A stretch of 64,000 nucleotides of DNA from Acidobacteria bacterium RBG_13_68_16. GTDB lineage: Bacteria; Acidobacteriota; Thermoanaerobaculia; Thermoanaerobaculales; Thermoanaerobaculaceae. Position numbers and translations under genes: made by a program. The DNA lies in the NCBI GenBank assembly GCA_001766905.1, contig MEKI01000137.1:30319-94318 (forward strand). The letters are read 5' to 3'. The notes beneath the pieces are model-generated. The model saw only the letters and a program-made list of their open reading frames with translations, did not search any database and had not been told where the DNA came from. Shown one piece after another: positions 34,547 to 52,014 of the stretch (its first letter is position 1; each line of letters opens with the position of its first letter).

Positions 34547-35914
34547 TCACCGCGCGACCTCTGCCACGCGGTACACTCCACCCGCCTCGCGCATCACGCC
34601 GTTCGCCCAGTAGGCCGCGAGCACAACGCCCTCGGCGGCCAGGTCCGCCACCGCGGCTCCCGGTGCGCCCCACAGGCGCACCAAGGACCAGCCGAAGACG
34701 AGGCGCAACGCGACGTTGAGCGCCGCGGTCGAGTTGGCAAGCTTCTCGCGACCGGTGGTGTAGAGGTGCAGGGTCGTGGTGGTGTTGAGCAGAAACGGGA
34801 CCGCCTGTACGGCGAGGATGCGCAGGGGTAACGCCGCGGCCGCATAGGCGCGCCCGAAGGCTACGACAACCAATACGTCGGCTAGCGCCAACCCGACCGC
34901 GACAGCCGCACAACCCGCTAGCGCCATGCGCACCAGCGCCCGGCCGTATAGGCGCTCACCGGCCATGCTGCCACTCTCGCCGTGGGCCGCCGCAAGCGCG
35001 GGGAACAACACCGCGAAGAACGACGCGGGAGCCAGCGTGAGCAGACCCTGCAGGCGCGCCGCGACCGAGAACATGGCCACCTCGGCTGGCCCGCGCAGGG
35101 CTTCGACGAGGAAGAGGTCGACGCGGAGCTGGAGTGCGCCGAGCACACCCGCCAACGCGAAGGGGAGGGAGCGGCGCAGCAGCGCGACGGTGCTGTCCAT
35201 GGGCGAGGTGCCCGGCGACCCGCCCGGGGCCGGGGCGGTCCCCTCCCTGGCGATCTGCGCCTCACCGCGGCGAAACAGCGCCATGCCGCCGAGCAGCTCG
35301 CCCACCTGCACGAGGATCAGCCAAGCGACGAGGGCGGTGACGGTTGGGGCCAGGAGGAGCACCGCGAGCACACCGGCGAGCTGCACCGCAAGACCCGTGA
35401 GGTTGACCAGCAGCACGTAGCGCATCTTTCCCCAGGCCCGAAACAGCGCCGCGAAGGAGCTGTTGGCCGCATTGAGCGCGAGGAGCACGCCGGACAGGCG
35501 GATGGCACCGACCGCGCCAGGGTCGGGTGCGAGGATCTCCGCTAGAGGCGGCACTGCCAGGAGCAGCGCGAAAGACCCACCGAGGGTACCCTTGGCGCGC
35601 AGCGAGGCGGCGAGCAGGGCGCGGCTGCGTTCGGGGCGGCGGGCTACCTCGCGGGTGAGGCTCGCCTCCAACCCGGCCTCGGCGACCATTCCGAGCACGA
35701 AGACCATCGCCATCACCGCCGCGTACTGGCCGAACGCCGTCGCCCCCAGCACCCGTCCGATCGCGACGGAGGTGAGGAACGCCAGCCCCTGGCCGACGCT
35801 GTTGTTGACCAGCAGGGTCAGGCCACGGTTGAGGAGCCCCTGCACGGGAGATCCACCACGCTCCGGAGGCGCTGACGATCCGCCGGGTACACGGGGGACC
35901 GGGGACGTGCTCAC
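34547..35914 (-). CDS. Wzx-type oligosaccharide/polysaccharide flippase (MOP superfamily)
   Basis: 455 aa with about 12 or more TMs and the polysaccharide-biosynthesis-protein N-terminus (LLVNNSVGQGLAFLTSVAIGRVLGATAFGQYAAV). Its start overlaps the upstream GT4 stop by 4 nt. Confidence 0.82.
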   Translation of the reverse strand: MSTSPVPRVPGGSSAPPERGGSPVQGLLNRGLTLLVNNSVGQGLAFLTSVAIGRVLGATAFGQYAAVMAMVFVLGMVAEAGLEASLTREVARRPERSRALLAASLRAKGTLGGSFALLLAVPPLAEILAPDPGAVGAIRLSGVLLALNAANSSFAALFRAWGKMRYVLLVNLTGLAVQLAGVLAVLLLAPTVTALVAWLILVQVGELLGGMALFRRGEAQIAREGTAPAPGGSPGTSPMDSTVALLRRSLPFALAGVLGALQLRVDLFLVEALRGPAEVAMFSVAARLQGLLTLAPASFFAVLFPALAAAHGESGSMAGERLYGRALVRMALAGCAAVAVGLALADVLVVVAFGRAYAAAALPLRILAVQAVPFLLNTTTTLHLYTTGREKLANSTAALNVALRLVFGWSLVRLWGAPGAAVADLAAEGVVLAAYWANGVMREAGGVYRVAEVAR

Positions 35915-37101
35915 GCCCGACGTCCCCTGGAGGATGCTGCAACCCTGGTTGCCGCGAGAACCCGGCGTTTCTCGACGAGGCGCGTGTACAGCCGGGTGAG
36001 CTGCCGCACCGAACTGGACAGGGTGTACCGCGACTCGACCGCTGCCCGGCTTGCCTCCCCGAGGGCGGTGCGGCGAGCCGGGTTGCGGGCGAGTGCCAGG
36101 ACCGCCTCGGCCAGCCCCTCATCGTCCCCGACCCGGACCGTGAGGCGCTCCCCGAACAGCTCCGGGAGCACGCCCACCGCGGTGCCCACGGTAGCGCGGC
36201 CGCACGCCGCCGCCTCCAGCGCCACCATGCTCTGGCTCTCGAAGCGCGACGAGAGCACGGCGAGGTCGCAGGCGCGGTAGTACGCGGGGAGTCGGTCATG
36301 CGCCACGGCCCCATGAAACGTCAAGTGGGGCTCCACTCCGAGCCTTTCGGCGAGGCGCTCGAGGTCGCGCCGGAGGGGGCCGTCACCGACCATGTGCAGG
36401 TGCGCGGCCGGGGTCGCGGCCGCCACGCGCGCAAGCGCACGGAGCAACGTTTCCTGGTCCTTGACGGGCACAAGCGACGCCACGTGGAGGATGCACGGTG
36501 CACCCGCCAGGTGCATCGCGGTGCCACCGCCATCGCTCGGATGGAAGAGGTTTGTGTCCACGCCCAGGGGCAGCCGTGAGAGTCGCCCGGCTGGTACGTG
36601 GGGCGAAGCAAGCCTCTCCATCTCCCGTGAACCTACGGTGACCACGTCCGCGTGGCGGAGCGCTCGGCGGACGAGCGTGCGACCGGCGATGGACAGCGCC
36701 GTGCCGTACCCGAGGCTGGGCAGGCCGACGAGCTCGCCGCCGACGAGGGAGACCACAGCCGGCATCCCGAGGGCCCTCGCCGCTGCGGTGGCGAGGAACC
36801 CGGCCTCGTCGGCCCACAGACCGTGGACCAGGTCGAAGGCAGCGCGCGCGTTCTCCCGGCGCACGCACGCGAAGGCTCTGGCAAGCAGCGCCAGGCGGCC
36901 GAACGCCCCGTCCTGGGCGGCGCCCAGCGCGTGCACGCGCGCGGAGAACGCCACGTAGCTCGCCTTCTGATGCGGATACCTCAGCGCGAACAGCTCGACC
37001 TCGTGCACCCTGGCGAGTTCCCGTACCAGCCCCGTAAGCGCCGGGACGCACCAGTCGCTCTCGTCAGCGGAAAAACCGGGTGTTAGGAGGGCCAGGCGCA
37101 C
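35911..37101 (-). CDS. GT4-family (GT-B) glycosyltransferase
   Basis: VRLALLTPGFSADESDWCVPAL... N-terminus and a C-terminal GT1 half (LLRALARV...LHMVGDGPLR...FESQSMVALEAAACGRATVGT). Start set at GTG 37101, 8 nt after GGAGG (alternative 37110). Confidence 0.85.
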   Translation of the reverse strand: MRLALLTPGFSADESDWCVPALTGLVRELARVHEVELFALRYPHQKASYVAFSARVHALGAAQDGAFGRLALLARAFACVRRENARAAFDLVHGLWADEAGFLATAAARALGMPAVVSLVGGELVGLPSLGYGTALSIAGRTLVRRALRHADVVTVGSREMERLASPHVPAGRLSRLPLGVDTNLFHPSDGGGTAMHLAGAPCILHVASLVPVKDQETLLRALARVAAATPAAHLHMVGDGPLRRDLERLAERLGVEPHLTFHGAVAHDRLPAYYRACDLAVLSSRFESQSMVALEAAACGRATVGTAVGVLPELFGERLTVRVGDDEGLAEAVLALARNPARRTALGEASRAAVESRYTLSSSVRQLTRLYTRLVEKRRVLAATRVAASSRGRRA

Positions 37102-37196: not shown

Positions 37197-38720
37197 ATGC
37201 GGTGGGGAACGAAGTGGCGAGACGTCGCGAGCCTGTTCGCGCTGTCGCTGGGCATGCGGGCGGTGGTCCCCCTCGGGACCGGATTCGACGGGCTGTACGG
37301 TCAGGATCCGTTCGCCTACTACGGCTATGCGCTGCAGCTGCGCGATGCACTGGCGGTGTTGCACCCACCGCCTCCGTTCTTCTGGCCCATCGGCTACCCG
37401 CTGCTCGTCGCTGCCGCGTTCGCCGTGGTCGGGGCGCACCCGCTCGCCGGTCAACTGGTCAGCGTCGTGGCCGGCGCAACGGTCGCCCCCGTCGTGTACC
37501 TCCTGGTGCGCGAGGCTGCCGGGCGGGCGCGGGCAGGGGCGTTGGTGGCCGGCGCCGTGGCTGCGGTCGGCCCTCAACTCCTCCTCTCGAGCCTTTCGGT
37601 GATGTCCGATGCCTCTGGCCTCGCTTGGGTCACGCTCTCGGCGCTGGCGATGCTGCGCTATCTCCGCAGGCTCGAAGTGCGATGGCTCGCCGCCGCCGCG
37701 TTCGCGCTGGGCTGGGCAGTGCTTACCCGCTGGGTGTACGCGCTGGCCGTGATCCCCTGGGCGGTAGCAGCGGCGATCGCCTGGCGGGCGGCTGGGCTCC
37801 GTCTCCGGAGCGTAGTGGCCGCCGCGGCGTTGGCGGTGGCGGTCGGGGGTGCGGTGATCGGGGTGCAGTTCGCTGGCGACGTTCGTGGCGTCGGGCCATC
37901 CCACGTGGGCGACCTGCAGGTGGTGAGCTGGAACCCGGCGAACGCGCTCCTGGCCACCGTGCGCAACTCCGATGGGGTCTTCCATTACCGCTATCCGATT
38001 GGGGTGTTTTACGCCCTGCCCCCACTCCACCCCGCCTTCGTGTTCCCGGTGTTCACGCCTTTCCTCCTGCTGGGGGTGGCCTCGCTGTGCTCGCTGCCCC
38101 GCGCGCTGGCAGCGCTGCTCGCGGGGTGGCCGGCCGTGGTGTGGATGTTCCTCGCCGGCATCGCGTGGGAAAACCCGCGCTTCTCGCTCGCGCTTCTCGT
38201 GCCGCTGCTGGTGTTTGTGGGCCTGGGTGTCCAGCGCGCGCTCGAGTTGGACGCGGGAAGGTGGAGGAGAGCCGTGGCCGGCGCATGTGCCGTCGGCCTG
38301 GTCGGGGCGCTGGCGTGGTCGGTGCGCGACCTCCGCCGTTTCGTAGCGGAGAAGGATGCGGCGCTCGCGATGAGCCGGTGGGTGGAGAGCGAGCTTCCCC
38401 CGGGCGCGACGCTCCTCACGTTCAGACTCACCAACACGGTCGCGCACTACACCTCGGTTCGGGCGGTCGAGCTGTACAACGAGAGCCCGGCGTCGCTGAC
38501 GGAACGGGCGTGCGGCCCGGATGCGCCCTACCTGCTGTTGGACGTCGGGAACCTCACGGCGCAGTGGAGCGGCCTCTCGCCCCATCTCAACTTCCTGTGG
38601 CTGCGCGACGAGGCCGGTCTCGCCGAAGTGGGGCGGCGTGGGGGGTATACGCTGTGGCGGGTCGGGGACCTGTGTCGCCACGCCGGGGAAGCGCCGCCTC
38701 CCGCGGTTTCCGGGCCTTGA
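37197..38720 (+). CDS. GT-C-fold membrane glycosyltransferase-like protein (PMT_2/ArnT-like)
   Basis: 507 aa and polytopic. The first-loop motif GLYGQDPFAYYGYALQL is followed by many TMs and a soluble C-terminal domain. Divergent from the GT4 gene at 37101. Confidence 0.7.
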   Translation: MRWGTKWRDVASLFALSLGMRAVVPLGTGFDGLYGQDPFAYYGYALQLRDALAVLHPPPPFFWPIGYPLLVAAAFAVVGAHPLAGQLVSVVAGATVAPVVYLLVREAAGRARAGALVAGAVAAVGPQLLLSSLSVMSDASGLAWVTLSALAMLRYLRRLEVRWLAAAAFALGWAVLTRWVYALAVIPWAVAAAIAWRAAGLRLRSVVAAAALAVAVGGAVIGVQFAGDVRGVGPSHVGDLQVVSWNPANALLATVRNSDGVFHYRYPIGVFYALPPLHPAFVFPVFTPFLLLGVASLCSLPRALAALLAGWPAVVWMFLAGIAWENPRFSLALLVPLLVFVGLGVQRALELDAGRWRRAVAGACAVGLVGALAWSVRDLRRFVAEKDAALAMSRWVESELPPGATLLTFRLTNTVAHYTSVRAVELYNESPASLTERACGPDAPYLLLDVGNLTAQWSGLSPHLNFLWLRDEAGLAEVGRRGGYTLWRVGDLCRHAGEAPPPAVSGP

Positions 38721-40020
38721 AGATCATCTCGCAGCCGAAGACGTACCGGTACCGCTCGACATCGAACCCCATCGCGCGCAGGCGGGCCGCGAGGCCACGG
38801 CGGGCGAAGTGCGTGATGTGCTCGCCGGCGTACGCATCGGGGAGAAGCTTGCCGTAGCACCACTCGATCGCGCGCCACAGCAGCCTGCCGTAGTCGGGGG
38901 TACCGAGGATGAGCGATCCGCCGGGCGCGAGGACGCGATCGAGCTCGCCCAGCACATTTGGCGTGTCGGGGAGGTGCTCGATGAGCTGCGAGCAGATAAC
39001 GGTCCCAAAACTCGCCGCAGGAAACGGGAGGCGCGTGAGGGTCCCCTGCACCAGCGGCCCGTGCCGGGAGCGCAACCAGCGCAGCTTGGCGTGAGCGAAA
39101 TCGAGCCCAACCGCGTCCGGAAGGTCCACGATGATGTGGCTCGAGCCGCAGCCGACGTCGAGGACCGGGGTGTGGTCGTCGAGTAAACCCAGGACGGTCC
39201 CGTGGCGCCGCCGCTGCCAGGCGCGCTGGAGCCACAGGGGACTGTCGAAGGCACGCCAGTCGTAGTCGGGGGCGGAAGCGGAGTTCCGCAGACGCCACAT
39301 GCGCACGAAGGTCGCCAGAAACGCGCGGGCGAGCCGCACGAAGCGGACGTGGGAATCCCCATTGCGGCGGGGCATGTAACGGAACGGCACCTCGACGATT
39401 CGGTGGCCCGCGTTGTGGGCCCGAATCAAGATCTCTTCCAGGGCGTCGAAGTCCCGGGCGGCGAACGGGTGGGCCTCGACGACGCTTCGGTGGTACATGC
39501 GAAACCCGCTCGAGAGGTCTCGGATCGGCAGCCCAAGGGCCCACCCGAAGCTGCGGTTGAGAGCGCGGCTGAAGAGTCCGCGCACCCACCCCATGACGGC
39601 TCGACCGCCTGGGGCATATCGCGAGGCGATGATGATGTCGGCGTCCGCGCGCCGTTTCCAGAGATCCGGGAGGAACTCGCAGCGGTGCGAGAGGTCGGCA
39701 TCCATTGTGAGGATCCAGGGCGCCGAGGTCGCGGAGAAGCCGGCCAGAAGGGCGCCCCCGTACCCTTCCTGGCGCTGCTGTACCACACGGGCGCCGAGGG
39801 CCTCGACGACCGCGGCGGTACCGTCGCTTGAGGCTCCGTCCACCACGACCACCTCCGCCGGCACCGCCAGCCGCGCCAGCGCCACCCGCAGGGCCGGCAG
39901 CAGCAGTTCGAGGTTCTCGCGCTCGTTGAGCGCCGGTATCACGACCGCGAGCGAGGCCCGCGCAGCGCCGGTCGGTGCGCTTTCCGTCACGTCGGCTTGC
40001 TCACGGTTGCTGGCGTGCAT
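38587..40020 (-). CDS. Fusion protein: GT2 polyprenyl-phosphate sugar synthase-like domain plus class I SAM methyltransferase domain
   Basis: Start revised to ATG 40020 (MHASNREQ). The GT2 half (about 39315..39950) has AVVIPALNERENL, VVVVDGASSDGT, TMDADLSH and SGFRMY (DPM1/GtrB-like). The MTase half (about 38650..39270) has VLDVGCGSS...FGTVICSQLIEHLPD...LAPGGSLILGTPD. Confidence 0.85.
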   Translation of the reverse strand: MHASNREQADVTESAPTGAARASLAVVIPALNERENLELLLPALRVALARLAVPAEVVVVDGASSDGTAAVVEALGARVVQQRQEGYGGALLAGFSATSAPWILTMDADLSHRCEFLPDLWKRRADADIIIASRYAPGGRAVMGWVRGLFSRALNRSFGWALGLPIRDLSSGFRMYHRSVVEAHPFAARDFDALEEILIRAHNAGHRIVEVPFRYMPRRNGDSHVRFVRLARAFLATFVRMWRLRNSASAPDYDWRAFDSPLWLQRAWQRRRHGTVLGLLDDHTPVLDVGCGSSHIIVDLPDAVGLDFAHAKLRWLRSRHGPLVQGTLTRLPFPAASFGTVICSQLIEHLPDTPNVLGELDRVLAPGGSLILGTPDYGRLLWRAIEWCYGKLLPDAYAGEHITHFARRGLAARLRAMGFDVERYRYVFGCEMIFKARKPREAALPRRGDTGPRPATAYTPHAAPLRRDRPRRAATGS

Positions 40021-40030
40021 CCCATCACCT

Positions 40031-41314
40031 CTACGAGCCAGCGAGTGCGCCAGACGACGCGCCTCCCGGATCGGGGTGTGCGCGGGTGCCGGCGAGCCAT
40101 GCCGCCCCCAGGAGGGCCGCCCACAGCAGGAGGGCACCGTAGAGCTTGGGGTAGGCCAGCAGGGCCCACGCCCCGTGGTCAAGCCCGGGCGAGCGGTACG
40201 GCAGGTCGGCGGCGACCGGGAGGAAGGCCGCGGCAAGCAGCACCCAGGCCATCGGCGACCGCCGCTCCAGCGCCCACGCGAGGGCGATGGCGGAAGGGAG
40301 GAGGAGCATCGTGTACGTGTAGTCGAGCGACATGGGGCTCGCCACGACGCCGGCGATCACGAACGCCGCGAAGACACGGTCGTCGCGCGGGCGCGACCGC
40401 GCCACCCAGAGGCCAGCGCCGATGAGGGCGAGTAGTGCAACCCACGGTCCGAGGAACGCGACACCCGGTGCGTTGAGCAGCGGTGCAGGGTTCCAGACCG
40501 GGTCGGGTGCAAAGAAGTGGTGGAAGAAGCCGGTCACGCTCTGGTACGCGGTGACGGCCCGTTCGGGGCGCGTCGCGGCGAAGGCGAGAGCGGCGGCGTC
40601 GGCTCGCCACGCGCCCACGCCGATCCACGGGAGCGACCCGAGCGCCACCGCGGCAACCGTGGCCGCCCCCCACGCCAGAGCCCGCCAGCGCCGCTCGGAG
40701 AGCGCGAGCACCCACAGTAGGCCCCCGGCCAGCTTGATCACCAGCATCAGGCCGAGTGCGATCCCGAGGACCACTTCGTTCCCCGCTCGGTACCCGTACC
40801 AGGCGGCGGTGGCTAGGGCGAGGAGCAGCACGTACACGTTGGCGACGTGAAAGTTGGCGGCCAGAGGTTGGTAGACGAGGGTGAGTGCCACGAACCCGAG
40901 GGCCCACGGCCATGGGAGGCGGGCCTCGCGGAGCAGCCAGGGTAAGGTGACCGCCAGCAGCACCAGGCTCAGAGCGGTCCAGGCGATGCGCGCACCGGTG
41001 TACTCGAGGCCTGCGAGGGGGAGCAGCACCAGTGCGGTGGTGGGTGGGTTGACGTTGATGTCGGTGACGCCGGGGGTGAAGCGGCCACTCTGGCCCGCGA
41101 ACCAGGTATCGTCGTAGGTGAGCGAGAGATCCTCACCGTTGGCGAGCAGCCGTGCCAGTGTGTAGTGCGCCCCGAAGCACGCCGACGGGCGCACCGCGGC
41201 TCGAGCGACGAGCGTCGCGAAGCGCCACCCTGCCACCAAGACCACCGCCCCGAGGGTCACGAGCCCAAGCGTGCTGAGCCACTGCCGTGCGCGGGATCGT
41301 CGGGAGTCTGTCAT
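40031..41314 (-). CDS. DUF2029/GT87-like GT-C membrane glycosyltransferase (polyprenyl-phosphate-sugar dependent type)
   Basis: 427 aa and polytopic. The first periplasmic loop (GEDLSLTYDDTWFAG...DINVNPPTTALVLLPLAGL) resembles the Y.YPP...PL pattern of the GT87/DUF2029 mannosyltransferase family. Confidence 0.65.
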   Translation of the reverse strand: MTDSRRSRARQWLSTLGLVTLGAVVLVAGWRFATLVARAAVRPSACFGAHYTLARLLANGEDLSLTYDDTWFAGQSGRFTPGVTDINVNPPTTALVLLPLAGLEYTGARIAWTALSLVLLAVTLPWLLREARLPWPWALGFVALTLVYQPLAANFHVANVYVLLLALATAAWYGYRAGNEVVLGIALGLMLVIKLAGGLLWVLALSERRWRALAWGAATVAAVALGSLPWIGVGAWRADAAALAFAATRPERAVTAYQSVTGFFHHFFAPDPVWNPAPLLNAPGVAFLGPWVALLALIGAGLWVARSRPRDDRVFAAFVIAGVVASPMSLDYTYTMLLLPSAIALAWALERRSPMAWVLLAAAFLPVAADLPYRSPGLDHGAWALLAYPKLYGALLLWAALLGAAWLAGTRAHPDPGGASSGALAGS

Positions 41315-41324
41315 CGACGCCGAC

Positions 41325-42800
41325 CTAGAACCCGCTGGTTTCGGGGCGCTGGTACGAGAGCAGGTGGTTCAGCGCCCGGAGCTCGAGGGGGTGAGCGTAG
41401 ATGTGGAGGCGGTACCGCCACCCGCTCGCCGCCTTCAGTACTGCCCGCCAGAACCCCCGCAGCTTGATATCTGTGATCGTCGGGTAGTAGGCGTTGAGCA
41501 CCTGCTCGAAGTTGCGCACCTCCATCCGGGTGCCGTCGGAAAGCCAAGGCATGGTGGTCGAGCGGTGCTGGGCGAACTCCTGCCAGGCGGGGGAGATCCA
41601 TTCCTCGAGCGTGTCCGGGAAGCGGAAGCCGGACGCCTTGGCGCGCTCGTACAGCTCGCCGTCGAGCGGCACAGGCGAGTACATGTACAGCACGATCTCC
41701 GCGTTCGGGTTAACACCCTTGACGCGGCGGATGAACGCGAGCGTCCGTCGGGTGTCGGTTTCCGGGTCCGGCGGATTGCCGAGGACGAAGGAGAGTTCGG
41801 GGACGATCCCGTAATGCCGCATCTTCTCGGCGATGGCGAGAGTTTTCTCGGCCGAGGCGGAGCCGCCCTTGTTCATGCGCTTGAGGGTCTCGTCGGACCC
41901 GGACTCGGCCCCCAGGAAGACCATCTTGAGCCCCGAGTCGCGCATCATCCCCCAGCTCCGCTCCGAGTAGCGCAACAACGTGTCGATGCGTGCCTCCCCC
42001 CACCACGCGATTCGCAGGTCGCGAATGCGCTCGGCGAACTCCGTCGTGCGGGATTCCTGGACGAAGAAGTTGTTGTCGTAGAACTCGACCGCGTCCGCGC
42101 CGAAGCGTTCCACCAGCGTGCGCGCCACCCGGGCGGTGCGGTCGGCGGACTGTGCGAGCCATCGTCCCGAAACCATGTTGACGACCGCGCAGAAGTTGCA
42201 GAAGAAAGGGCAGCCATAGCTGGAGTGGTGGGGCAGGGTGCGTGCCCCCATGAACGTCCGGCGCACGTACCGCGACACCTCGGCTTTGTGGTACGGAAAG
42301 TCGGGGAGGCGATCCGGGTGAGGGATCGGCGCCATAGTGTTGGTGACGGGCTCTCGCACGGCGTTGCGGTACGCGAGCCCAGCGAGGGAGGTGGGATCCC
42401 CGCCACTCTCGAGACGGTCGAGGAGCTCTTTGAGCACGAGCTCGCCGTGACCGCGCACTACGAAGTCCACGTACGGGGCGCGCAGGCAGACGTCCCAGTG
42501 CTGGGTGGGGAAGTAGCCGCCCCAGATCACCGTCAGGCGTGGGCGCAGCTCCTTGAGCCTTCGGCAGGTCGGTACGGCGCCTGCGAGCTGTGGGCCCGGC
42601 ATGACTGTCACGGCCAGCGCTCGCGCGCCCCACTCACGGACGAGAGCGTCGATGGCGGCGACGGGGTCGGGCTCGAGGTTGCCGTCCACTAATGCGTACT
42701 CGTGGTGTTCCTCCAGCACCGCCCCCAGCGCCAGCAGCGACATGGGAAGCACCGGCTTGCGGGTAGCCGAGCTGGGTGGGTTGTAGAGCACCAGCCTCAT
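41325..42800 (-). CDS. Cobalamin (B12)-binding-domain radical SAM enzyme, copy 1
   Basis: Start revised to ATG 42800 (MRLVLYNPP, GGAGGG RBS). An N-terminal B12-binding-like Rossmann region (LAVTVMPGPQL...VIWGGYFPT) is followed by the CxxxCxxC cluster GCPFFCNFC (42189..42212). Confidence 0.88.
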   Translation of the reverse strand: MRLVLYNPPSSATRKPVLPMSLLALGAVLEEHHEYALVDGNLEPDPVAAIDALVREWGARALAVTVMPGPQLAGAVPTCRRLKELRPRLTVIWGGYFPTQHWDVCLRAPYVDFVVRGHGELVLKELLDRLESGGDPTSLAGLAYRNAVREPVTNTMAPIPHPDRLPDFPYHKAEVSRYVRRTFMGARTLPHHSSYGCPFFCNFCAVVNMVSGRWLAQSADRTARVARTLVERFGADAVEFYDNNFFVQESRTTEFAERIRDLRIAWWGEARIDTLLRYSERSWGMMRDSGLKMVFLGAESGSDETLKRMNKGGSASAEKTLAIAEKMRHYGIVPELSFVLGNPPDPETDTRRTLAFIRRVKGVNPNAEIVLYMYSPVPLDGELYERAKASGFRFPDTLEEWISPAWQEFAQHRSTTMPWLSDGTRMEVRNFEQVLNAYYPTITDIKLRGFWRAVLKAASGWRYRLHIYAHPLELRALNHLLSYQRPETSGF

Positions 42801-43468
42801 GCGGCCCTCCTGACCCGGTACAGGGAGAGGGTCTCTGAGATCAAATGCCGGCGGCCGACCACCGCCGCCTCGAGACCCCCCGTGGCGCACCCCGCGAAGA
42901 AGCCGTCCGCCTCCGCGAGGGAGGAGAGCAACACCAGGGCGTGGCCGAGGGGCTCCAGGTGGGCAGCGAGCGACCCGGTGAAGCGTTCGAAGAAGTCCGG
43001 TGCGCGCCAGGAGGCATCCCAGAGGTCGCGCGGCGAGCCGCGGTAGAAGGGGGGGTTGCAGAGCACGACGTCGAAGCGCCGACCGTCAAACGGCCCGAAC
43101 AGATCGCCCTCCGCAACCGAAACACGGTCCTCGCAACGGTTGAGCATGACGTTGAGGCGGGCGCAGCGCACCGCGTGGGGGTTGAGGTCGACCGCCGCCA
43201 CCGAGCGGGCGAACTGTGCCGCCACGATCGCAAGGGCGCCCGAACCGGTCCCCACGTCCAGGACGTCGGCGGTGCTGGGAACGAGCTCGGGGGTGAGGGC
43301 CGAGGCGAAGAAACCGGTGGTGAGGAACAGGGTCGGGTTGAAAACCTCGGGCAGAACCAGGAGCGGGTGGCCGGCGAACCGCTCCAGGACCAGCCGACGG
43401 TGGCGGCGACGCTGGAACAGCACGAACCGCCCCCGGAGGTAGAGGCGGACGAGGCTAGCGCGCACCAT
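42797..43468 (-). CDS. NPPF-motif class I methyltransferase (HemK/RsmC-like small MTase domain)
   Basis: VLDVGTGSGALAIVAA (motif I) and VVLCNPPFY (motif IV of N-directed amino-methyltransferases). Start provisionally ATG 43468. Its stop overlaps the radical SAM ATG (ATGA). Confidence 0.78.
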   Translation of the reverse strand: MVRASLVRLYLRGRFVLFQRRRHRRLVLERFAGHPLLVLPEVFNPTLFLTTGFFASALTPELVPSTADVLDVGTGSGALAIVAAQFARSVAAVDLNPHAVRCARLNVMLNRCEDRVSVAEGDLFGPFDGRRFDVVLCNPPFYRGSPRDLWDASWRAPDFFERFTGSLAAHLEPLGHALVLLSSLAEADGFFAGCATGGLEAAVVGRRHLISETLSLYRVRRAA

Positions 43469-44462
43469 TCCGCCTCCCGAACCGGGTTTCCAATCGACTT
43501 GCCGCCCAAGGGCGGCGCCGCCCAACGATGACCGGAAACGTAGCCCGTTCCCTCTGGCCCCTCATGGTTGCCAAAAGGGAGTGTCCTCGCATCGGCCACC
43601 AGCGGAGGGGCCGCAGCAACCGGAAGCGCAGCCCCAGATCGGTGGCGAGTTCACGCAATCGGCGATGGGTGAGGAAACCCTCGCTGGCGACGGCATTGGA
43701 CGGGAATCCGTGGTCGCGGATAAACGCGTGCTCGCGCTCGCGGACCATCCGGGCCCCGCTCACTGCGTCGTGGTAGATGGGGGAATCCATGATCACGAGA
43801 TGGCCGGTGTCGCCAAGAACCCGCAGCGCCTCGGCGAGCGTCACCACGAGGTCCGGGGAGTAGTGCAACGCGGCGTTGAACACCACGATGTCCGCCTGTC
43901 GCCCGGCGAACGGCAGGTGGTCAAAGTCCGCCACGACCGAGGTGAAAACCGTCGGGTAGTGCACGTGGGCCCCGAGTCCGTCGCGCGCGTCGTCGCAGAG
44001 GTCCACGGCTGCAAGCCGGTGTCCCCGCTCCGAGAGACGGTGCGACAGCCAGCTGTTACCCGCCCCGAGGTCCAGCACGGAAAGCGGCGTTTGGGTCTGC
44101 AGTTCGATGGGGCGAAGCACGCGCTGGACCAGAGTTGCATAGCTGGCCGCGCGGATTCGCCAGATCTCCTCGAAGCGCCCGGTGAGGTCCACGAAGGGGA
44201 GGGCGCGGAAGTAAGCGGGGCCGCGGCTGCCCCACCCTTCCCGGTGCCGCACCTCGCGGTACTCGGTCACGAAGCGACGCAGCGCCAGTTCGCGTTCCGG
44301 CGGCAGGAGGTGCCAGATGCCTCCATCGCGCGAGAAGCGCAGCTCGCAGGCCGGGCAGCGGAGGAGGTCGCGGCCGCTCGGGAACGGCTGCCGACACCGG
44401 GGGCAGGCCAACCGAAACTCGGTCGGCGTCTCCACGTTCAGGGCAAATGCGCTCTCACTCAC
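43455..44462 (-). CDS. Class I SAM methyltransferase with N-terminal CxxC...CxxC zinc ribbon
   Basis: CPRCRQPF...LRCPACELRF (Trm112-like ribbon), then VLDLGAGNSWLSHRLSERG...DIVVFNAALHY. Confidence 0.78.
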   Translation of the reverse strand: MSESAFALNVETPTEFRLACPRCRQPFPSGRDLLRCPACELRFSRDGGIWHLLPPERELALRRFVTEYREVRHREGWGSRGPAYFRALPFVDLTGRFEEIWRIRAASYATLVQRVLRPIELQTQTPLSVLDLGAGNSWLSHRLSERGHRLAAVDLCDDARDGLGAHVHYPTVFTSVVADFDHLPFAGRQADIVVFNAALHYSPDLVVTLAEALRVLGDTGHLVIMDSPIYHDAVSGARMVREREHAFIRDHGFPSNAVASEGFLTHRRLRELATDLGLRFRLLRPLRWWPMRGHSLLATMRGQRERATFPVIVGRRRPWAASRLETRFGRRNGAR

Positions 44463-45267
44463 GTTTGCGTAGCACCATCAGGAAGTGGTCGCCGGCCTCT
44501 CGCAGCAGCGGGAGGGCGCCGAGCTTTCCGTCCAGCCACCAGAGCGCCCGGCTCGCCCGGCGCAGGCGCCGGTGGAACCCCACGAGGTACGGAGGCGGAG
44601 AGAAGAGACCCAAGGCGCGAGACGCCTCGTGCGCGAACGAGCCCCGGAAGTGATCGAGAAACTCCTTCGGTCGGTAGTAACGGGTCCACACCGTGCCGCG
44701 GTTCAAGCCGACCGGGACCGCGCGTGAGCCGAGACGCACGAGCGCACGCCGCAGGTCGCCGCGAGCCACGAAGTACGCCAGTTCCCAGGGACAGAGCTTG
44801 CCCATGACCGACGCAACGAGCACGCCTCCGCCGTTGAGGAGGCTGCCGCAGCCCGCCGCAACGGCTGAGAGGTCCGGGACGCAGTTGAGGGCTCCCAGGT
44901 CCGAGTAGATGGCGTCGAACGGCCCCCCTGAAAGCCGGTCCAGCGCTTCGATACCCAATTCCAGGGCCGTGACACGCTCGGTAAGCCCCTCCTCGGCCGC
45001 ACGGGCGCGGGTCCGGGCCACCATCTGTGGCGAGGCATCGATGGCCACGACCGTGTAGCCGCGCGCCGCAAGGTGGGCGGCGTCGATGCCGGTGCCGCAC
45101 CCGACGTCCAGGAGCCGTGCGCCGGGGCTCACCCGTCGGGTGAGTTCATCGACCAGGCCTGTGCGCATCCGCTGGACGATTTCGTTGTTGCCGAACGGCC
45201 CGTCGTAGAAGGAGGCGACGGAGTCGAACGCCTGCCGCGTCTCGTGCAGCTGCGCCTGGGCGCTCAC
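44455..45267 (-). CDS. Class I SAM methyltransferase (Methyltransf_11/25-like)
   Basis: LLDVGCGTGIDAAHLAARGYTVVAIDASPQMV...FDAIYSDLGALNCV. The GTG start overlaps the upstream stop (GTGA). Confidence 0.83.
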   Translation of the reverse strand: MSAQAQLHETRQAFDSVASFYDGPFGNNEIVQRMRTGLVDELTRRVSPGARLLDVGCGTGIDAAHLAARGYTVVAIDASPQMVARTRARAAEEGLTERVTALELGIEALDRLSGGPFDAIYSDLGALNCVPDLSAVAAGCGSLLNGGGVLVASVMGKLCPWELAYFVARGDLRRALVRLGSRAVPVGLNRGTVWTRYYRPKEFLDHFRGSFAHEASRALGLFSPPPYLVGFHRRLRRASRALWWLDGKLGALPLLREAGDHFLMVLRKRE

Positions 45268-46817
45268 GGCTCACCTTCGCTTTGGGCGGTGGGTCGGGCG
45301 GCCTCGGTGGGAACCATGTGGGGCAGCAGCCCGACTCCGTCGTACGGCGCCCGCGCGAAGAGCGCGAGGCGCACCCGGGCGAGCGGCAGCGTGAGGGCGT
45401 TGTAGGCCATCGCCGCCGCGTGACGCAACTCCCGGCGGCCAAGGCGGAGGGGGTGCCGCAGCGCGTGGCGCAGGGCTCGGGCCGACCTTCGCGCGCGAAA
45501 CTCCTTGTGCAGCACGGTGTGGAGCTGACGGTAAAAGCCGGTGGAGAAAGGCCCCCGGTAGAGCATCGCGAGATCCGAGGAGTCCTGCCAGTTCTGCTTG
45601 GCACCCAGCTCGCTGCGGACCGTTTCGAAGAAGCGTGTGCCGGGGAGCGGGTACGACACGGACATTCCGATGTCATCCGGCGCGCACGCTCGAACCATTT
45701 GGAGGGTCTTCTCGATGTCCTCGCGGGTCTCACCCGGATAACCGAACTGGAGGAAGAAGCAGACCTCGACGCCTGCCTCGTGCAGGCGCCGCGCGGCCTC
45801 GTGGATCTGCTCGACCCTGGTGCCCTTGTCCATCGCGTCCAGGATCCTCTGCGATCCGGACTCGGCCCCGACCCAGACCGTCCTGGCACCTGCGCGCGCG
45901 AGTGCGGCGATCGTATCCCCCTTGAGGAGCAGGTCGACGCGGTGAAGGCTCTTGAAAGGGACGAGTGCGTTCTCACGCTCTGCGACTTCGGCGAAGCGCT
46001 GGACCCAGCCAGGCTTGAGGCCAAGGATGTCGTCGGCGAAGGAGATCTGGTCGGGGTTGTAGGTCCGCTTGAGCCATGCGAGCTCGGCCACGACGTTCTC
46101 GGGGGAGCGGGCGTGGTAGCGCTGACCCCAGATCGGCTTGGCGCACCAGTTGCAGTGGTACGGGCACCCCCGTGTCGTGACCATGTTCATCGAGAAGTAC
46201 CCGTGGTGCTTGACCCAAATTGCTCGGTACCGAGGGACATCGATGAGGTCCCACGCCGGGAAGGGGAGCGCATCGAGATCCGCGAGCACTGGGCGAGGAG
46301 CGGTATGAATCACCCGTGAGCCGACGATGGTGTCCGGAAACGCGAGCCCCGGGATCCGGTCCAGGGGCGTGTCGGTGCGGCCGGTGAGCCGGGCCATTAA
46401 CTCGGCGAGGGTGGCCTCGCCCTCACCGATCGTCACGAAGTCTGCGCCGCGCGCGAGGTACTCCTCGGCGTGGTCAGAGGCGTCGGCCCCAGCCACGATC
46501 AGCGTGCTGCCGTGCCGCTTCGCCATACCGATCATCGTGAAGGCTGCCTCGCGCATGCGCAGCAGGCACATTTTCGAGAGGTAGTTGAAGTTGTCCTCGA
46601 AGAGGACGGCGAACTGCGGGCGCTCACGGTCGAGCGCCTCGGACCACGCCCACTCCGAGTCGGCCAGCATCGCGTCGAAGAGGGCGACATCGTGACCGTG
46701 CTCGCGCAACACGCTTGCCGCGTACATCGTGCCCAGCGGAGGGTAGGGCTGCATCCCCTCCCAGAGCTTGGGATCAAAACGCAGGTAGTACGACTGACCG
46801 AGGAGGACCGCGCTCAT
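45264..46817 (-). CDS. Cobalamin (B12)-binding-domain radical SAM enzyme, copy 2
   Basis: Start revised to ATG 46817 (MSAVLLGQSYY). B12-binding-like N-terminus (AVLFEDNFNYL...LIVAGADASDH...FVTIGEGE), then TRGCPYHCNWC (46143..46166). Not obviously similar in sequence to copy 1 outside the shared motifs. Confidence 0.88.
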   Translation of the reverse strand: MSAVLLGQSYYLRFDPKLWEGMQPYPPLGTMYAASVLREHGHDVALFDAMLADSEWAWSEALDRERPQFAVLFEDNFNYLSKMCLLRMREAAFTMIGMAKRHGSTLIVAGADASDHAEEYLARGADFVTIGEGEATLAELMARLTGRTDTPLDRIPGLAFPDTIVGSRVIHTAPRPVLADLDALPFPAWDLIDVPRYRAIWVKHHGYFSMNMVTTRGCPYHCNWCAKPIWGQRYHARSPENVVAELAWLKRTYNPDQISFADDILGLKPGWVQRFAEVAERENALVPFKSLHRVDLLLKGDTIAALARAGARTVWVGAESGSQRILDAMDKGTRVEQIHEAARRLHEAGVEVCFFLQFGYPGETREDIEKTLQMVRACAPDDIGMSVSYPLPGTRFFETVRSELGAKQNWQDSSDLAMLYRGPFSTGFYRQLHTVLHKEFRARRSARALRHALRHPLRLGRRELRHAAAMAYNALTLPLARVRLALFARAPYDGVGLLPHMVPTEAARPTAQSEGEP

Positions 46818-47770
46818 GCCCACGCTCCGTCGAGCTGACGAAGGCGCGTCTCCCACGCCGCGAGAATCCGTGCCCCGTGGCCGTGGAAGTGGCCCTTGTA
46901 CCCGTCGGCGTCGAACGCTGCCTCGCCGCCGGAGAGCTCACCGCGCGCGAGCTTTCCCTGCAGGTGAGATGCCTGCCAGCGCGCCAGCGCCGCCTCGATG
47001 CGGTCGCCGACGCGGCCGCGCAGCGCGGCTTCGGCCAAGCGCGCGAGGGCTCCGCCCACCCGACGCGGCGTCACCGAAGGAGGCGCGACTCCTGGGGAGT
47101 TGGGCAGGAAGATGCGAACCCAGGGGTTGGCCTCGCGCATGCGCTCGCACGTTTCGGGTCCCGCGATAGGCACCATCTGTAGCAGTTCGTGCGCGGTGTA
47201 GAGCGTGCGCTCGGCCAGAGCGAGCGCCCGTTCGGAGAGGACGTAGTTGGGGCAAAGACGGGTGCCGGCGGCGCCTGCCGCTCTGGCGAGGGCGGTCACC
47301 AGCGCCCGGCACAGCCAGACTCTCCCGGTACTTGCCACCACGAGGTAGTCGATATCCGCGTCGGGCTCGACGGCGTCCACAGCGAGGGCACCGGTGACCG
47401 CCACCATGCGAACGAAGGGAAGCGCCCCGAAAACCCGCCCCCAGCGCCGTGCGCGCGGCCACAGCGCCGCAGCCGAGGTCTCTCGCCGGAGGCGGACCTC
47501 CACGATCGCCTCGCGCCCCACGAGAGTGAAGAACTCGCCCCATCGCGTCGTGCGGCGCACGAGGCGCGGCGAGCGGTCCAGAGCCTCCGTGACGTCCGCG
47601 AGGGTGGCGTGCGCTGCGACCAGGTGCCGATGTGCCTCGGCAGCGGTGAGGGGGTGATCGAAGAGGTCGGCGTAGGCGAGCGTGGCGAGAACAGCGCGCG
47701 GAAGGTCGGGCACGGCCGGTGCGAGATCGGCGGGGAGAGACGTGTCGGTTGGGAGCCAGTTCGCCGTCAT
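46814..47770 (-). CDS. Unknown 318-aa protein with a Pol-beta nucleotidyltransferase-like G-x-x10-DxD signature
   Basis: VAVTGALAVDAVEPDADIDYLVV fits the pattern hG[GS]x9-13DxD, with Ala in place of Ser. Coding-like composition. Its stop overlaps the radical SAM ATG (ATGA). No confident family assignment. Confidence 0.55.
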   Translation of the reverse strand: MTANWLPTDTSLPADLAPAVPDLPRAVLATLAYADLFDHPLTAAEAHRHLVAAHATLADVTEALDRSPRLVRRTTRWGEFFTLVGREAIVEVRLRRETSAAALWPRARRWGRVFGALPFVRMVAVTGALAVDAVEPDADIDYLVVASTGRVWLCRALVTALARAAGAAGTRLCPNYVLSERALALAERTLYTAHELLQMVPIAGPETCERMREANPWVRIFLPNSPGVAPPSVTPRRVGGALARLAEAALRGRVGDRIEAALARWQASHLQGKLARGELSGGEAAFDADGYKGHFHGHGARILAAWETRLRQLDGAWA

Positions 47771-47780
47771 GCTGTATGCC

Positions 47781-48986
47781 CTACCCGATTGCGCGCGAAC
47801 GCGCCGCTCCCACCGGGCTGCCCAACACCCTGAGCATCTCTTGCTGGAAGCGAGCCTTGGAGAAGCGCTGCGCCGTCGCGCTGACGCGCCGCGGGTCGAA
47901 CCGTCGAAAGTTGAACGCCGTCAGGGCGGCCGCCAGCGTGTCGGTCTCCTGTCGGTCGAAGAAGACGCCGTTGACTCCTTCCTGGACGATATCGAGCGCC
48001 CCACCCGCTCGGTAGGCGATGACGGGCGTGCCACACGCGACCGCCTCGGCGGCGACGAGGCCAAAATCCTCGACCTGAGGGAAGATCAAGCCCCTCGCTT
48101 CGCGGTACAGGCGGGGCAACTGGGTCTCCTCGACCCAACCAAGGAACTCGACCGTGGGACCGGCCAGGCGCTGCAGGCGCTTGCGCTCACGGCCCACCCC
48201 CGCGATCTTGAGGGGGAGGCCCAACCGGGTGCAGGCCTCGATGCCGAGGTCGAAGCGCTTGTAGGGGAGGAGTCTTCCGACCATGAGGAAGTAGCCGTCT
48301 AACGTCGACCTGGCCCCGGTGCCGTTAACGCAGTACGTCTCGGTGTCAACGGGTGGAAAGACGACGGCGTCCGGCTGGCGGCCGTAGATCTCGCGAATAC
48401 GGCCGGCGATGTGAGTGGACACCGCAAGGAGTGTGGTGGGGCGCAGCGCAGCTTTGCGGTCCCACCGTCGCATCACGCGGAAGAGCGCCTCGCCCACCGC
48501 GGTGACTGGTGGGCTGGCCAGGAAGCCGTTGACGTACTTGGTCACGTCCTCCCAGAGGTAGCGTGTTGGCGTGTAGCAGTAGCAGACGTGGGGGACGTGG
48601 GGCGGCGGGACGACCCCCTTCGAGTACGAAGCGCTCGACGAGAGCACCAGGTCGAACCCGGAGAAGTCGAAGCGCTCGACCGCTCCGGGAAAGCTCCAGA
48701 AGAACAGGTGGTGGTGGTTGCCTATCCGCTTGCCTGCCACGGGGAGGCGGCTCAGAAAGGAGGTGCGCACATCCTTAGAACGGAAACGTCCTCGGGTACG
48801 GCCCTCGTCGTAGAACAGGCTGAAGATCGGTGAGCGAGGGAACATCTCGCAGAGCACTTCGAGAACGCGCTCGGCGCCGCCGTACTGCACGAGGAAATCG
48901 TGGGCGATGGCGATCCGCAGCGGGAGGTTGCGGTCCCTGGGGCGGGGTTCGGTGATGACCGGCACGTGCGCTCGCGCGGCTGGCAT
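47781..48986 (-). CDS. GT4-family (GT-B) glycosyltransferase; first gene of the nine-gene operon
   Basis: RIAIAHDFLVQYGGAERVLEVLCEMFP N-terminus and a C-terminal LKIAGVGRERKRL...EDFGLVAAEAVACGTPVIA (E-x7-E-type region). Confidence 0.85.
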   Translation of the reverse strand: MPAARAHVPVITEPRPRDRNLPLRIAIAHDFLVQYGGAERVLEVLCEMFPRSPIFSLFYDEGRTRGRFRSKDVRTSFLSRLPVAGKRIGNHHHLFFWSFPGAVERFDFSGFDLVLSSSASYSKGVVPPPHVPHVCYCYTPTRYLWEDVTKYVNGFLASPPVTAVGEALFRVMRRWDRKAALRPTTLLAVSTHIAGRIREIYGRQPDAVVFPPVDTETYCVNGTGARSTLDGYFLMVGRLLPYKRFDLGIEACTRLGLPLKIAGVGRERKRLQRLAGPTVEFLGWVEETQLPRLYREARGLIFPQVEDFGLVAAEAVACGTPVIAYRAGGALDIVQEGVNGVFFDRQETDTLAAALTAFNFRRFDPRRVSATAQRFSKARFQQEMLRVLGSPVGAARSRAIG

Positions 48987-52004: not shown

Positions 52005-52014
52005 CGCGCCCTCC

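Follow-up and report, generated by a model that had tools for sequence, protein, structure and literature searches.

A candidate cell-envelope glycan locus of Acidobacteria bacterium RBG_13_68_16 that combines cobalamin-type radical SAM enzymes with a nucleotidyltransferase-like protein

The operon at positions 38587-48986 of a 64,000-nt stretch of DNA from the metagenome-assembled genome Acidobacteria bacterium RBG_13_68_16 (assembly GCA_001766905.1, contig MEKI01000137.1, positions 30,319 to 94,318; hereafter the window) consists of nine minus-strand genes, designated g1 to g9 in gene order, which encode glycosyltransferases, methyltransferases, two cobalamin (B12)-type radical S-adenosylmethionine (SAM) enzymes and a protein with a predicted nucleotidyltransferase (NTase) fold. 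On balance, it is probably the main operon of a cell-envelope glycan locus, for a polysaccharide or glycoconjugate, which spans positions 34547-48986 and joins a cassette, g2-g7, to a layer of assembly genes. The functional locus reaches past 38587 to 34547 and takes in three further genes, d1, d2 and d3. The cassette would represent a laterally mobile, widely conserved cytoplasmic tailoring unit, and the machinery around it a second, lineage-specific layer devoted to assembly. A role in glycan synthesis is supported because assembly genes recur beside the cassette in two phyla and because the g2 domain occurs as fusions with GT2 and GT4 glycosyltransferases and with Wzy_C.

Conservation and genomic context of the cassette

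The g2 protein is 100% identical to hypothetical protein A2Y78_14930 and belongs to a large family whose members carry no functional name in their source records, among the matches listed. A word-indexed search returned more than 453 matches, relatives are encoded in at least 549 species-level genomes, and 6656 representative clusters reach E ≤ 1e-3 in a profile search, 2446 of them E ≤ 1e-30. The carriers are mainly Chloroflexota (Anaerolineae, Ardenticatenaceae, Caldilineales, Thermoflexus, Roseiflexaceae, Herpetosiphonaceae, Sphaerobacter, Nitrolancea, and Dehalococcoidia), joined by Acidobacteriota (Thermoanaerobaculaceae, Terriglobia, and Vicinamibacterales) and one Gemmatimonadetes metagenome-assembled genome (MAG). 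Of the 71 loci whose sequence extends far enough past g2, 65 have a same-strand B12-radical SAM gene that begins no more than 400 nt downstream of it.

Gene content was tallied in the 43 loci that measure 15 kb or more (the long loci). The tallies used tblastn with the verified window proteins, because open reading frame (ORF) calling had placed some high-GC genes in antisense, as happened for g6 and g8 in the window. A g3-like gene was present in 41 long loci, followed in frequency by g4-like (34), g5-like (21), g7-like (16), g6-like (13), and g9-like (2) genes. Across phyla, identity to the window proteins is 57-80% for g3 and 59-72% for g7. An earlier note on this DNA had made its reading depend on whether the nine genes are conserved together in relatives. 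They are in Acidobacteriota, the only group in which the nine-gene order and its convergent PMT gene recur (loci L007 and L010, to which g9 orthologues are confined, with variants in L004/L011 and L006/L008), whereas the unit that recurs across phyla is the g2-g3(-g7) cassette. The unit of conservation is thus the core of g2 plus a B12-radical SAM gene and not the nine genes; g1, g8, and g9 belong to it as accessories of particular lineages. In a rough neighbour-joining tree built for g3, the acidobacterial clade came out as sister to one Chloroflexota subclade, itself carrying PMT and GT4 genes, and this grouping suggests that the cassette moved between phyla.

Cassettes of Chloroflexota often elaborate on this core. 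They contain one to three extra B12-radical SAM paralogues, with up to five per locus (L009, L019, L051, L066, and others); these include a type that shares 34-40% identity with g3 and a type that shares ~30% with g7. A minimal variant (L018, L020, L028, L040, L047, L050, L056, and L067) consists of g2 followed by a g3-like paralogue and one methyltransferase gene; in about half of these loci a gene for an FG-GAP protein comes next, and some carry a gene for a GT-C-like membrane protein. Of the 43 long loci, 12 have a PNP_UDP_1 (nucleoside phosphorylase/nucleosidase) gene within the cassette (e.g., L045:12945-13721); the window has none. The best sub-threshold matches of its product are uridine phosphorylase, adenosine monophosphate (AMP) nucleosidase, and HpnG, ahead of methylthioadenosine/S-adenosylhomocysteine nucleosidase. 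Together with an NTase, this enzyme might take the base off a nucleotidylated intermediate, or it might simply clear SAM by-products. A radical SAM-SPASM gene follows g7 or lies near the cassette in five of the 43 (including L004:16370-17566, L006:14917-15954, and L064:6637-7689). None of the extra radical SAM paralogues, PNP-like proteins or SPASM proteins of the related loci reaches an NCBIfam cut-off.

The genes surrounding the cassette are those of glycan assembly. In the window it adjoins five glycosyltransferases of three folds and one flippase. In loci of Acidobacteriota, genes for GT4, GT87, GT2-methyltransferase, and PMT proteins lie around the core, while in Anaerolineae Wzy_C and GT4 genes lie downstream of it. 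Loci of the Ardenticatenaceae type have Wzy_C directly upstream of g2 and Wzx within the cassette, two further loci (L064 and L078) have PMT and GT4 genes, and genes for GT2 and GT-C-like membrane proteins also flank cassettes of Chloroflexota. Wzx homologues are located within the cassette in 9-11 loci of Chloroflexota. Wzy_C occurs in 17 of the 43 long loci, mostly from Chloroflexota, and is absent from positions 34547-48986 of the window, where the predicted GT-C enzymes (GT87 and PMT_2) may fill the periplasmic role in its place. At least one assembly gene accompanies the cassette in 25 of the 43 long loci, a figure that is a lower bound, as it covers homologues of the queries only, and a raw tally without control regions.

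Further evidence comes from domain fusions. The g2 domain is joined to a cellulose-synthase-like GT2 (P0124), to GT4 at either end (P0127, P0191, and P0186), and to Wzy_C (P0166), and both the GT2 and the GT4 fusions recur on several independent contigs. These arrangements suggest that the cytoplasmic g2 domain is tethered to the membrane glycan machinery and may act on lipid-linked intermediates at the inner membrane face. Two relatives of g3, HpnJ and AprD4, act on sugar rings and were also counted in favor of a glycan product.

The earlier note had proposed a methylated, lipid-linked glycoconjugate. The context fits that idea, with a Wzx flippase, a PMT_2 protein, a second GT4, recurrent Wzy_C and glycosyltransferase genes, and the fusions. 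The more specific attributes that it assigned to the product remain at the level of conjecture: the glycan may be mannose-type, may carry O-, N- and C-methyl groups, and may be elaborated in the periplasm.

Operon structure and the cassette enzymes

Rereading of coordinates and frames bore out the nine coupled minus-strand ORFs as first described, with the same start codons, stop codons, frames, and junctions (Table 1). Genes g1 and g2 are separated by a 10-nt gap (47781/47770), g2 and g3 overlap in ATGA (46817/46814), and g3 and g4 overlap in GTGA (45267/45264). The g4/g5 and g5/g6 overlaps are 8 and 14 nt, respectively; g6 and g7 again overlap in ATGA, and 10-nt gaps separate g7 from g8 and g8 from g9. 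The coupled starts of g3, g4, and g7 are confirmed over longer upstream ORF extensions because homologues from other genomes begin to align at residue 1. Most starts in the operon are preceded by Shine-Dalgarno-like motifs. Terminator-like sites are not in excess inside the block (6, vs. 6.7 expected from shuffled sequences), and the single promoter-like site, at 37160-37188, was assigned to the convergent gene d1 and lies outside the operon. A 183-nt leader precedes g1; a cobalamin riboswitch in it is ruled out, since an Rfam scan of the entire window, this leader included, found no family match and no tRNA. G+C content is 65-75% across the window and 69-70% in the block, which is no outlier. 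Gene coupling as tight as this is commonplace in bacterial operons, and the unusual aspect of the operon is its gene content.

Table 1. Genes of the candidate glycan locus, with predicted products and the domain or model matches behind them.
Gene	Positions	Strand	Predicted product	Basis
g1	47781..48986	-	GT4 (GT-B) glycosyltransferase, 401 aa, soluble; heads the operon	Pfam Glycos_transf_1, 92.7 bits
g2	46814..47770	-	Protein with predicted Pol-beta-type nucleotidyltransferase fold, 318 aa	AlphaFold (AF2) model; weak Foldseek matches and motif
g3	45264..46817	-	Cobalamin-type (class B) radical SAM enzyme 'a', 517 aa; partner of g2	Pfam B12-binding and Radical_SAM
g4	44455..45267	-	Class I SAM methyltransferase, 270 aa	Pfam Methyltransf_25, _11, and _12
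g5	43455..44462	-	Zinc ribbon (CPRC...CPAC) plus class I SAM methyltransferase, 335 aa	Methyltransf_11, 54.5 bits
g6	42797..43468	-	MTS/HemK-type methyltransferase with NPPF motif (CNPPFY), 223 aa	MTS, 59 bits; PrmA, 54.7 bits
g7	41325..42800	-	Cobalamin-type radical SAM enzyme 'b', 491 aa; g3 paralogue	Pfam B12-binding and Radical_SAM
g8	40031..41314	-	GT87 (DUF2029) GT-C glycosyltransferase, 427 aa, polytopic	Pfam GT87
g9	38587..40020	-	GT2 polyprenyl-phosphate-sugar-synthase-like protein with C-terminal class I methyltransferase, 477 aa, soluble; ends the operon	Pfam Glycos_transf_2, 75.9 bits (residues 26-182); Methyltransf_11, 59 bits (residues 287-372)
d1	37197..38720	+	PMT_2/PMT-type GT-C glycosyltransferase, 507 aa; convergent with the operon	Pfam PMT_2, 35.1 bits; PMT, 29.7 bits
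d2	35911..37101	-	Second GT4 glycosyltransferase; divergent from d1	Pfam Glyco_trans_1_4, 105.5 bits
d3	34547..35914	-	Wzx-type (Polysacc_synt/MOP) flippase, 455 aa	Pfam Polysacc_synt, 81.7 bits

Domains were called with Pfam, and curated families were assigned with NCBIfam models at their own cut-offs. Pfam verified the domain content originally proposed for the operon, namely three glycosyltransferase folds, two B12-radical SAM enzymes, and four SAM-methyltransferase domains. None of the nine proteins scored at or above any curated NCBIfam cut-off.

The g2 protein belongs to no Pfam or NCBIfam family, and a PDB sequence search with its profile gave matches at E > 1 only. An AlphaFold (AF2) model built from 46 homologues (predicted local distance difference test score, 90.5) has a winged-helix-like domain at its N-terminus and an alpha/beta domain in its centre, and the C-terminal domain is helical and bears a hairpin. 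Foldseek matches of this model to the PDB were weak (best E = 6e-3, 10-17% identity, query-normalised TM-scores 0.2-0.3), and the top ones were nearly all Pol-beta-type NTases: MntA/MNT, AadA, ANT(4'), ANT(9), and GlnE. In a profile alignment, the g2 segment VAVTGALAV...DIDYLVV aligned with FGSRATG...DWDFAVL of the MNT antitoxin, which corresponds to the hG[GS]x9-13Dh[DE]h signature, with Ala at the Ser position of the G[GS] motif in g2. Residues G127, D139, and D141 are invariant across the 46 sequences, as is H294 on the C-terminal hairpin, and NTP_transf_2 was weakly detected in 13 of the 46 family members. The DxD motif alignment, the Foldseek matches, and the NTP_transf_2 traces all agree with the initial description of g2 as NTase-like, and the model suggests a divergent NTase-fold protein.

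The g3 and g7 proteins have the architecture of class B radical SAM enzymes, in which a B12-binding domain (37.7 bits in g3 and 55.4 bits in g7; cut-off 32.1) precedes the radical SAM core (78.3 and 45.6 bits, respectively; cut-off 29.5), together with a CxxxCxxC motif (CPYHCNWC in g3 and CPFFCNFC in g7). The earlier note saw no obvious resemblance between the two, yet they are detectably related (26% identity, E = 3e-18). The best NCBIfam matches of g3, all far below cut-off, were BchE (140.3 bits; cut-off 481), HpnJ (129 bits), and the ladderane radical SAM family (124 bits); for g7 the best was BchE, again below cut-off (114.4 bits). Neither protein reaches the cut-offs of BchE, HpnJ, HpnR, PhpK, MgmA, ApyD, AprD4, the ladderane radical SAM family, or TIGR04295. 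In a PDB search, the nearest solved structure of both was AprD4 (1.7e-19 for g3 and 1.3e-9 for g7). Other distant solved relatives include CysS and TokK, and g3 also matched 9ccb (2e-16), the structure of MgmA, a glutamine C-methylase of methyl-coenzyme M reductase (PMC11796369).

Assignment of both g3 and g7 as methylases is a guess at the level of the enzyme class, as their nearest relatives include AprD4, which does not methylate. AprD4 is a diol-dehydratase that acts on an aminosugar, HpnJ is associated with a proposed ring contraction, and BchE is a cyclase. The radical SAM enzymes could thus work on a glycan by dehydration or deoxygenation, ring contraction, epimerisation, or carbon-carbon bond formation, leaving methylation to the four class I domains. 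AprD4 as best solved relative of both proteins, and HpnJ and BchE as top NCBIfam matches, favor such non-methylating chemistry, which nevertheless seems unlikely. Identity to AprD4 is low and the AprD4 family score falls far below its cut-off (82.6 vs. 500 bits), while both proteins have a B12-binding domain above the Pfam cut-off, and the class B radical SAM enzymes characterised so far are mostly methyltransferases (reviewed in PMC12931638).

The remaining cassette genes encode class I methyltransferases. The best NCBIfam match of g4 was CpaM (74.9 bits, below the cut-off of 180). The g5 protein has a weak Pfam match to Prok-RING_1, and g5-g6 fusions are frequent in Chloroflexota, with fused homologues of 563-572 aa in L001, L003, and L005. 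The NCBIfam matches of g6 also fell below cut-off, comprising HemK2/MTQ2 TIGR00537 (74.9 bits; cut-off 87), PRK14968.1-3 (89.6; 162), and PrmC (62.3; 199), and g6 is probably an N-methyltransferase.

The affinity of g6 for HemK2/MTQ2 and PrmC, which are protein-glutamine methyltransferases, raises the question of whether the cassette modifies a peptide or protein, either in the manner of a pathway for peptides that are synthesized ribosomally and modified post-translationally (RiPPs) or in the maturation of a secreted or S-layer protein. In such a system, the B12-radical SAM enzymes would C-methylate side chains, g6 would N-methylate glutamine or asparagine amides, the winged helix of g2 would recognise the peptide, and the glycosyltransferases, PMT, or Wzy_C (as a PglL-like oligosaccharyltransferase) would glycosylate the product. 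Besides g6, this reading can draw on the matches of g3 to MgmA (2e-16) and to the RiPP radical SAM families ApyD and rSAM_ocin_1, on the radical SAM-SPASM gene that follows g7 in some loci, and on a gene for a 69-aa Frankia_peptide protein (PF14407) after the cassette of a Sphaerobacter MAG (L001:17861-18070). In addition, the PMT family comprises the protein O-mannosyltransferases of actinobacteria and eukaryotes. However, no match exceeded a RiPP family cut-off, ApyD and rSAM_ocin_1 included, and the Frankia_peptide gene has a counterpart in no other locus, the window included. When the 972 intergenic small ORFs (25-110 aa) of 86 loci were compared all against all, the only matches were antisense shadows of real genes, and no small ORF proved to be conserved within the cassette or beside it, with the proviso that blastp may miss very short or divergent peptides. 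As every gap within the operon is ≤10 nt, the earlier observation that no precursor-peptide ORF is present holds for the window and extends to these 86 loci. There is also no protease, leader-processing enzyme, or recognisable RiPP recognition protein, and g2 is fused to GT2, GT4, and Wzy_C rather than to peptide-modifying enzymes. Peptide or protein modification as the primary function therefore appears improbable. The glycan may nevertheless end up on a protein, which would agree with the envelope glycan explanation.

Assembly genes and the proposed working of the locus

The only polytopic membrane proteins predicted for the locus from transmembrane segments are g8, d1, and d3; the cassette proteins and the remainder appear soluble. 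The g1 protein, with no transmembrane segment, is 79-84% identical to its counterparts in acidobacterial relatives, where its gene is invariably directly upstream of g2. A defence-system reading, prompted by weak matches to GT4-conflict Pfam models, was dropped, as these merely overlap the ordinary GT4 models. Eight transmembrane-like segments and a GT87 score of 81.8 bits (cut-off 25) place g8 in the GT87 class, and its gene is kept downstream of the core in acidobacterial loci. The top NCBIfam matches of the GT2 domain of g9 were all below cut-off: AglJ (82.1 bits; cut-off 325), dolichyl-phosphate hexose transferase (71; 375), and ArnC (57; 529). The final 36 codons of g9 (38587-38720), which are proline/arginine-rich and not conserved in orthologues, overlap the 3' end of d1 by 134 nt, and convergent transcription could couple the expression of d1 with that of the operon ending in g9.

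The d1 protein has ~12 transmembrane-like segments. Its counterpart occupies the same convergent position in L007 and L010, and homologues lie downstream of the core in Chloroflexota loci L012, L064, and L078. Translation of d2 likely starts with GTG at 37101 or 37110 and not at 37368; the start near 37101 is favored by homologues, whose alignments begin at residues 88-90, and by a GGGAGG motif just ahead of 37101. The start of d3, whose product has eight transmembrane-like segments, overlaps the d2 stop in GTGA.

From these components, the following sequence of events may be envisaged. The GT4 enzymes g1 and d2 would extend a lipid-linked glycan from nucleotide sugars on a polyprenyl carrier at the cytoplasmic side of the membrane. 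At the inner membrane face, g2 would bind or nucleotidylate a sugar position of this glycan, and g3 and g7 would carry out cobalamin-dependent radical methylation of unactivated sugar carbons or a related radical editing. O-methylation would be the task of g4 and g5, while the NPPF enzyme g6 would N-methylate an amino or amide group. A polyprenyl-phosphate hexose would be made by g9, whose fused methyltransferase may methylate that hexose. The Wzx protein d3 would then flip the intermediate, after which the GT-C enzymes g8 (GT87) and d1 (PMT_2) would add sugars from the polyprenyl-phosphate donor on the outside; the final acceptor may be a polysaccharide, a lipid anchor, or a protein. In this outline we infer the substrate, the identity of the sugar, the sequence in which the steps occur, that g2 is active as an NTase, and that the radical SAM enzymes methylate.

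Several observations weigh against an envelope glycan locus of this kind. In 18 of the 43 long loci, no assembly gene was detectable by the queries used, and some of the recurrences reflect plain synteny among close relatives; in Ardenticatenaceae-type loci holA, murE, and DUF6391 genes recur as well. The locus contains no nucleotide-sugar-modifying genes (dehydratase or aminotransferase) and no initiating phosphoglycosyl transferase. The radical SAM proteins score alike against NCBIfam families that modify peptides, lipids, porphyrins, and phosphinates; the fold matches of g2 are weak and, with Ala in place of the motif Ser, its catalysis is putative; and the typical substrates of HemK-type NPPF methyltransferases are protein glutamine or nucleobases, not sugars. 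For all members, the proposed function is based on gene context and sequence comparison.

Some of the same evidence could point to the tailoring of a lipid or small molecule, such as a membrane lipid, the polyprenol carrier itself, or a nucleoside-derived polyol, with glycosyltransferases that make a glycolipid head group and not a polymer. In keeping with this possibility, HpnJ, HpnR, and the B12-radical SAM family of ladderane lipids are among the families matched by g3, g7, and their paralogues, a polyprenyl synthase gene lies downstream of the L001 cassette, and the PNP_UDP_1 genes found in 12 of the 43 loci have weak matches that include AMP nucleosidase and HpnG. The combination of an NTase with a nucleosidase parallels the adenosylhopane-to-ribosylhopane logic of HpnH and HpnG. 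However, the family scores are all far below cut-off, the polyprenyl synthase occurs in one locus only, and no lipid-biosynthesis family is recurrent among the neighbours. Wzx, Wzy_C, and several glycosyltransferases indicate an oligo- or polysaccharide on a carrier lipid, and the fusion partners of g2 include Wzy_C and a cellulose-synthase-like GT2, so that lipid or small-molecule tailoring is given little credence.

Still less probable, to the point of being a marginal consideration, is a cytoplasmic polymethylated polysaccharide with a storage or chaperone function instead of a surface polymer, akin to the mycobacterial methylglucose lipopolysaccharides (MGLP) and methylmannose polysaccharides (MMP). 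The many methyltransferase domains per glycosyltransferase and the cytoplasmic setting of the GT4s and methylating enzymes would suit it, and a GH57 gene is located near L003. On the other hand, the presence of a flippase and of two GT-C enzymes, together with the recurrence of Wzy_C, implies export, genes for an MGLP-type acyltransferase or branching enzyme are absent, and NCBIfam gave no MGLP or MMP family match.

The surroundings of the locus were also surveyed. Upstream of g1, a minus-strand gene (49170-52664) encodes a 1164-aa protein in which PD40 beta-propeller repeats are combined with a Peptidase_MA-like region and, at the C-terminus, an Omp85-like domain; a gene for a small TPR protein (52688-53065, minus strand) precedes it. 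The L006 cassette has equivalent upstream neighbours (topA, dprA, TPR, and a Tricorn/PD40 protein), and the 1164-aa protein is probably unrelated to the operon. The nearest gene for an initiating phosphoglycosyl transferase, of the Bac_transf (WbaP) type, lies 13 kb from the locus at 19405-21156, within a possible second glycan-related cluster (16590-26286, minus strand). There it accompanies a GT4/DUF1972 gene (20811-22079), and the pair is flanked by ORFs lacking Pfam matches, of 812 aa (16590-19028) and 1119 aa (22927-26286). The initiating transferase that the operon lacks might come from this cluster. An iron-homeostasis cluster at 11297-15344 (plus strand) contains genes for Fur, FeoB, and two DtxR/IdeR-type repressor-like proteins, the first with a C-terminal FeoA domain. 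Origin-proximal genes occupy the beginning of the window, with gyrB, recF, dnaN, and dnaA at 43-6158 (minus strand) and yidC, parA, and parB at 6987-10896 (plus strand). Because the window includes the gyrB-recF-dnaN-dnaA set, the glycan locus is placed ~30-45 kb from the likely replication origin. A perfect DnaA box, TTATCCACA, is located at 4799-4807 between dnaN and dnaA; DnaA boxes show no enrichment over shuffled sequences.

Relation to characterised systems and significance

The locus most resembles surface polysaccharide loci of the Wzx/Wzy and GT-C kind (O-antigen, exopolysaccharide, and cell-wall loci), with which it shares cytoplasmic GT4 and GT2 enzymes, a MOP-type Wzx, embedded tailoring methyltransferases, and co-directional coupled genes, and, in relatives of the window, Wzy_C. 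It differs from these loci in lacking an initiating phosphoglycosyl transferase, a chain-length regulator, and genes of nucleotide-sugar pathways, and in containing two cobalamin-type radical SAM enzymes and a predicted NTase-fold protein. We know of no characterised polysaccharide locus with cobalamin-type radical SAM enzymes and an NTase-fold protein. The actinobacterial polyprenyl-phosphate-mannose system (Ppm1, PimE-type GT87, and PMT/GT39 enzymes of lipomannan/lipoarabinomannan (LM/LAM) synthesis and protein O-mannosylation) likewise combines a GT2 synthase, to which the g9 domain may correspond, with GT87 and PMT proteins. In the window, however, the host is acidobacterial, the synthase-like protein is fused to a methyltransferase, no cut-off is reached, and genes for phosphatidylinositol mannosides or LAM are absent.

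Parallels to the cassette are found in systems of other kinds. The class B radical SAM enzymes GenK/GenD1, Fom3, AprD4, and HpnJ, whose substrates are sugars or linked to sugars, share their architecture and CxxxCxxC motif with g3 and g7, but identity is at most ~25-30%, and the known enzymes make small-molecule antibiotics or hopanoids, not polymers. GenK/GenD1 are responsible for C-methylation of aminoglycosides, and Fom3 works on a substrate that Fom1 has activated with cytidine monophosphate. By analogy, the pairing of g2 with a B12-radical SAM enzyme recalls Fom1/Fom3, although the cytidylyltransferase fold of Fom1 differs from that of g2. With MntA/MNT, AadA, ANT(4'), and ANT(9), g2 has in common the predicted NTase fold and the G...DxD motif, as well as a C-terminal helical domain like that of the ANT enzymes. 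Unlike these proteins, it has a winged helix added at the N-terminus as well as a hairpin at the C-terminus, and its context is neither that of a toxin-antitoxin system nor that of resistance. Proteusin RiPP clusters, such as that of polytheonamide with its B12-radical SAM C-methylases PoyB/PoyC and N-methylase PoyE, also include several B12-radical SAM enzymes and an N-methyltransferase-like enzyme in one operon; the window operon has no precursor peptide, epimerase, or protease and instead features glycan-assembly genes and, in its relatives, glycosyltransferase fusions. Mycobacterial MGLP/MMP clusters and methyltransferases that terminate chains, such as WbdD, resemble the locus in their high ratio of methyltransferases to glycosyltransferases and in methylation at the cytoplasmic side, yet they use class I methyltransferases only, with no radical SAM enzyme or NTase, and the polymethylated polysaccharide clusters contain no flippase or GT-C enzyme.

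The suggestion that the operon matches no characterised pathway is upheld by the absence of an equivalent in NCBIfam, the PDB, and the literature covered. No description of the cassette was found in the full-text literature; most subscription journals are outside this coverage, and an earlier description is possible. In a 2026 review of B12-radical SAM enzymes, the words polysaccharide, glycan, sugar, and lipid are all absent (PMC12931638). The tailoring layer of NTase, B12-radical SAM, and methyltransferase proteins is thus one for which no characterised counterpart was found, set within a known kind of glycan locus. A narrower proposal is offered more tentatively, as a possibility short of being probable: g2 and g3 together with the methyltransferases may form a widespread module of Chloroflexota and Acidobacteriota that installs C-methyl or other radical-derived groups on lipid-linked envelope glycans, perhaps once g2 has transiently nucleotidylated the sugar.

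Chloroflexota and Acidobacteriota are among the most abundant bacteria of soil, sediment, and sludge, and to our knowledge their envelope glycans are almost unexplored. If the proposal is correct, the cassette would provide the first known example of cobalamin-dependent radical SAM chemistry on a structural polysaccharide, and a family that counts several thousand proteins and now lacks any function would gain one. The pairing of an NTase fold with a cobalamin radical SAM enzyme points to sugar chemistry undescribed for polysaccharides, whether C-methylation or another radical editing. Cultivable relatives probably carry the core, as homologues occur in Sphaerobacter, Nitrolancea, Thermoflexus, Roseiflexaceae, Herpetosiphonaceae, and Thermoanaerobaculaceae assemblies, which makes the cassette directly testable. 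Its apparent transfer between phyla suggests a portable tailoring unit that might serve glycoengineering, and in the communities where these bacteria live, the structure of surface glycans would be tied to the availability of cobalamin.

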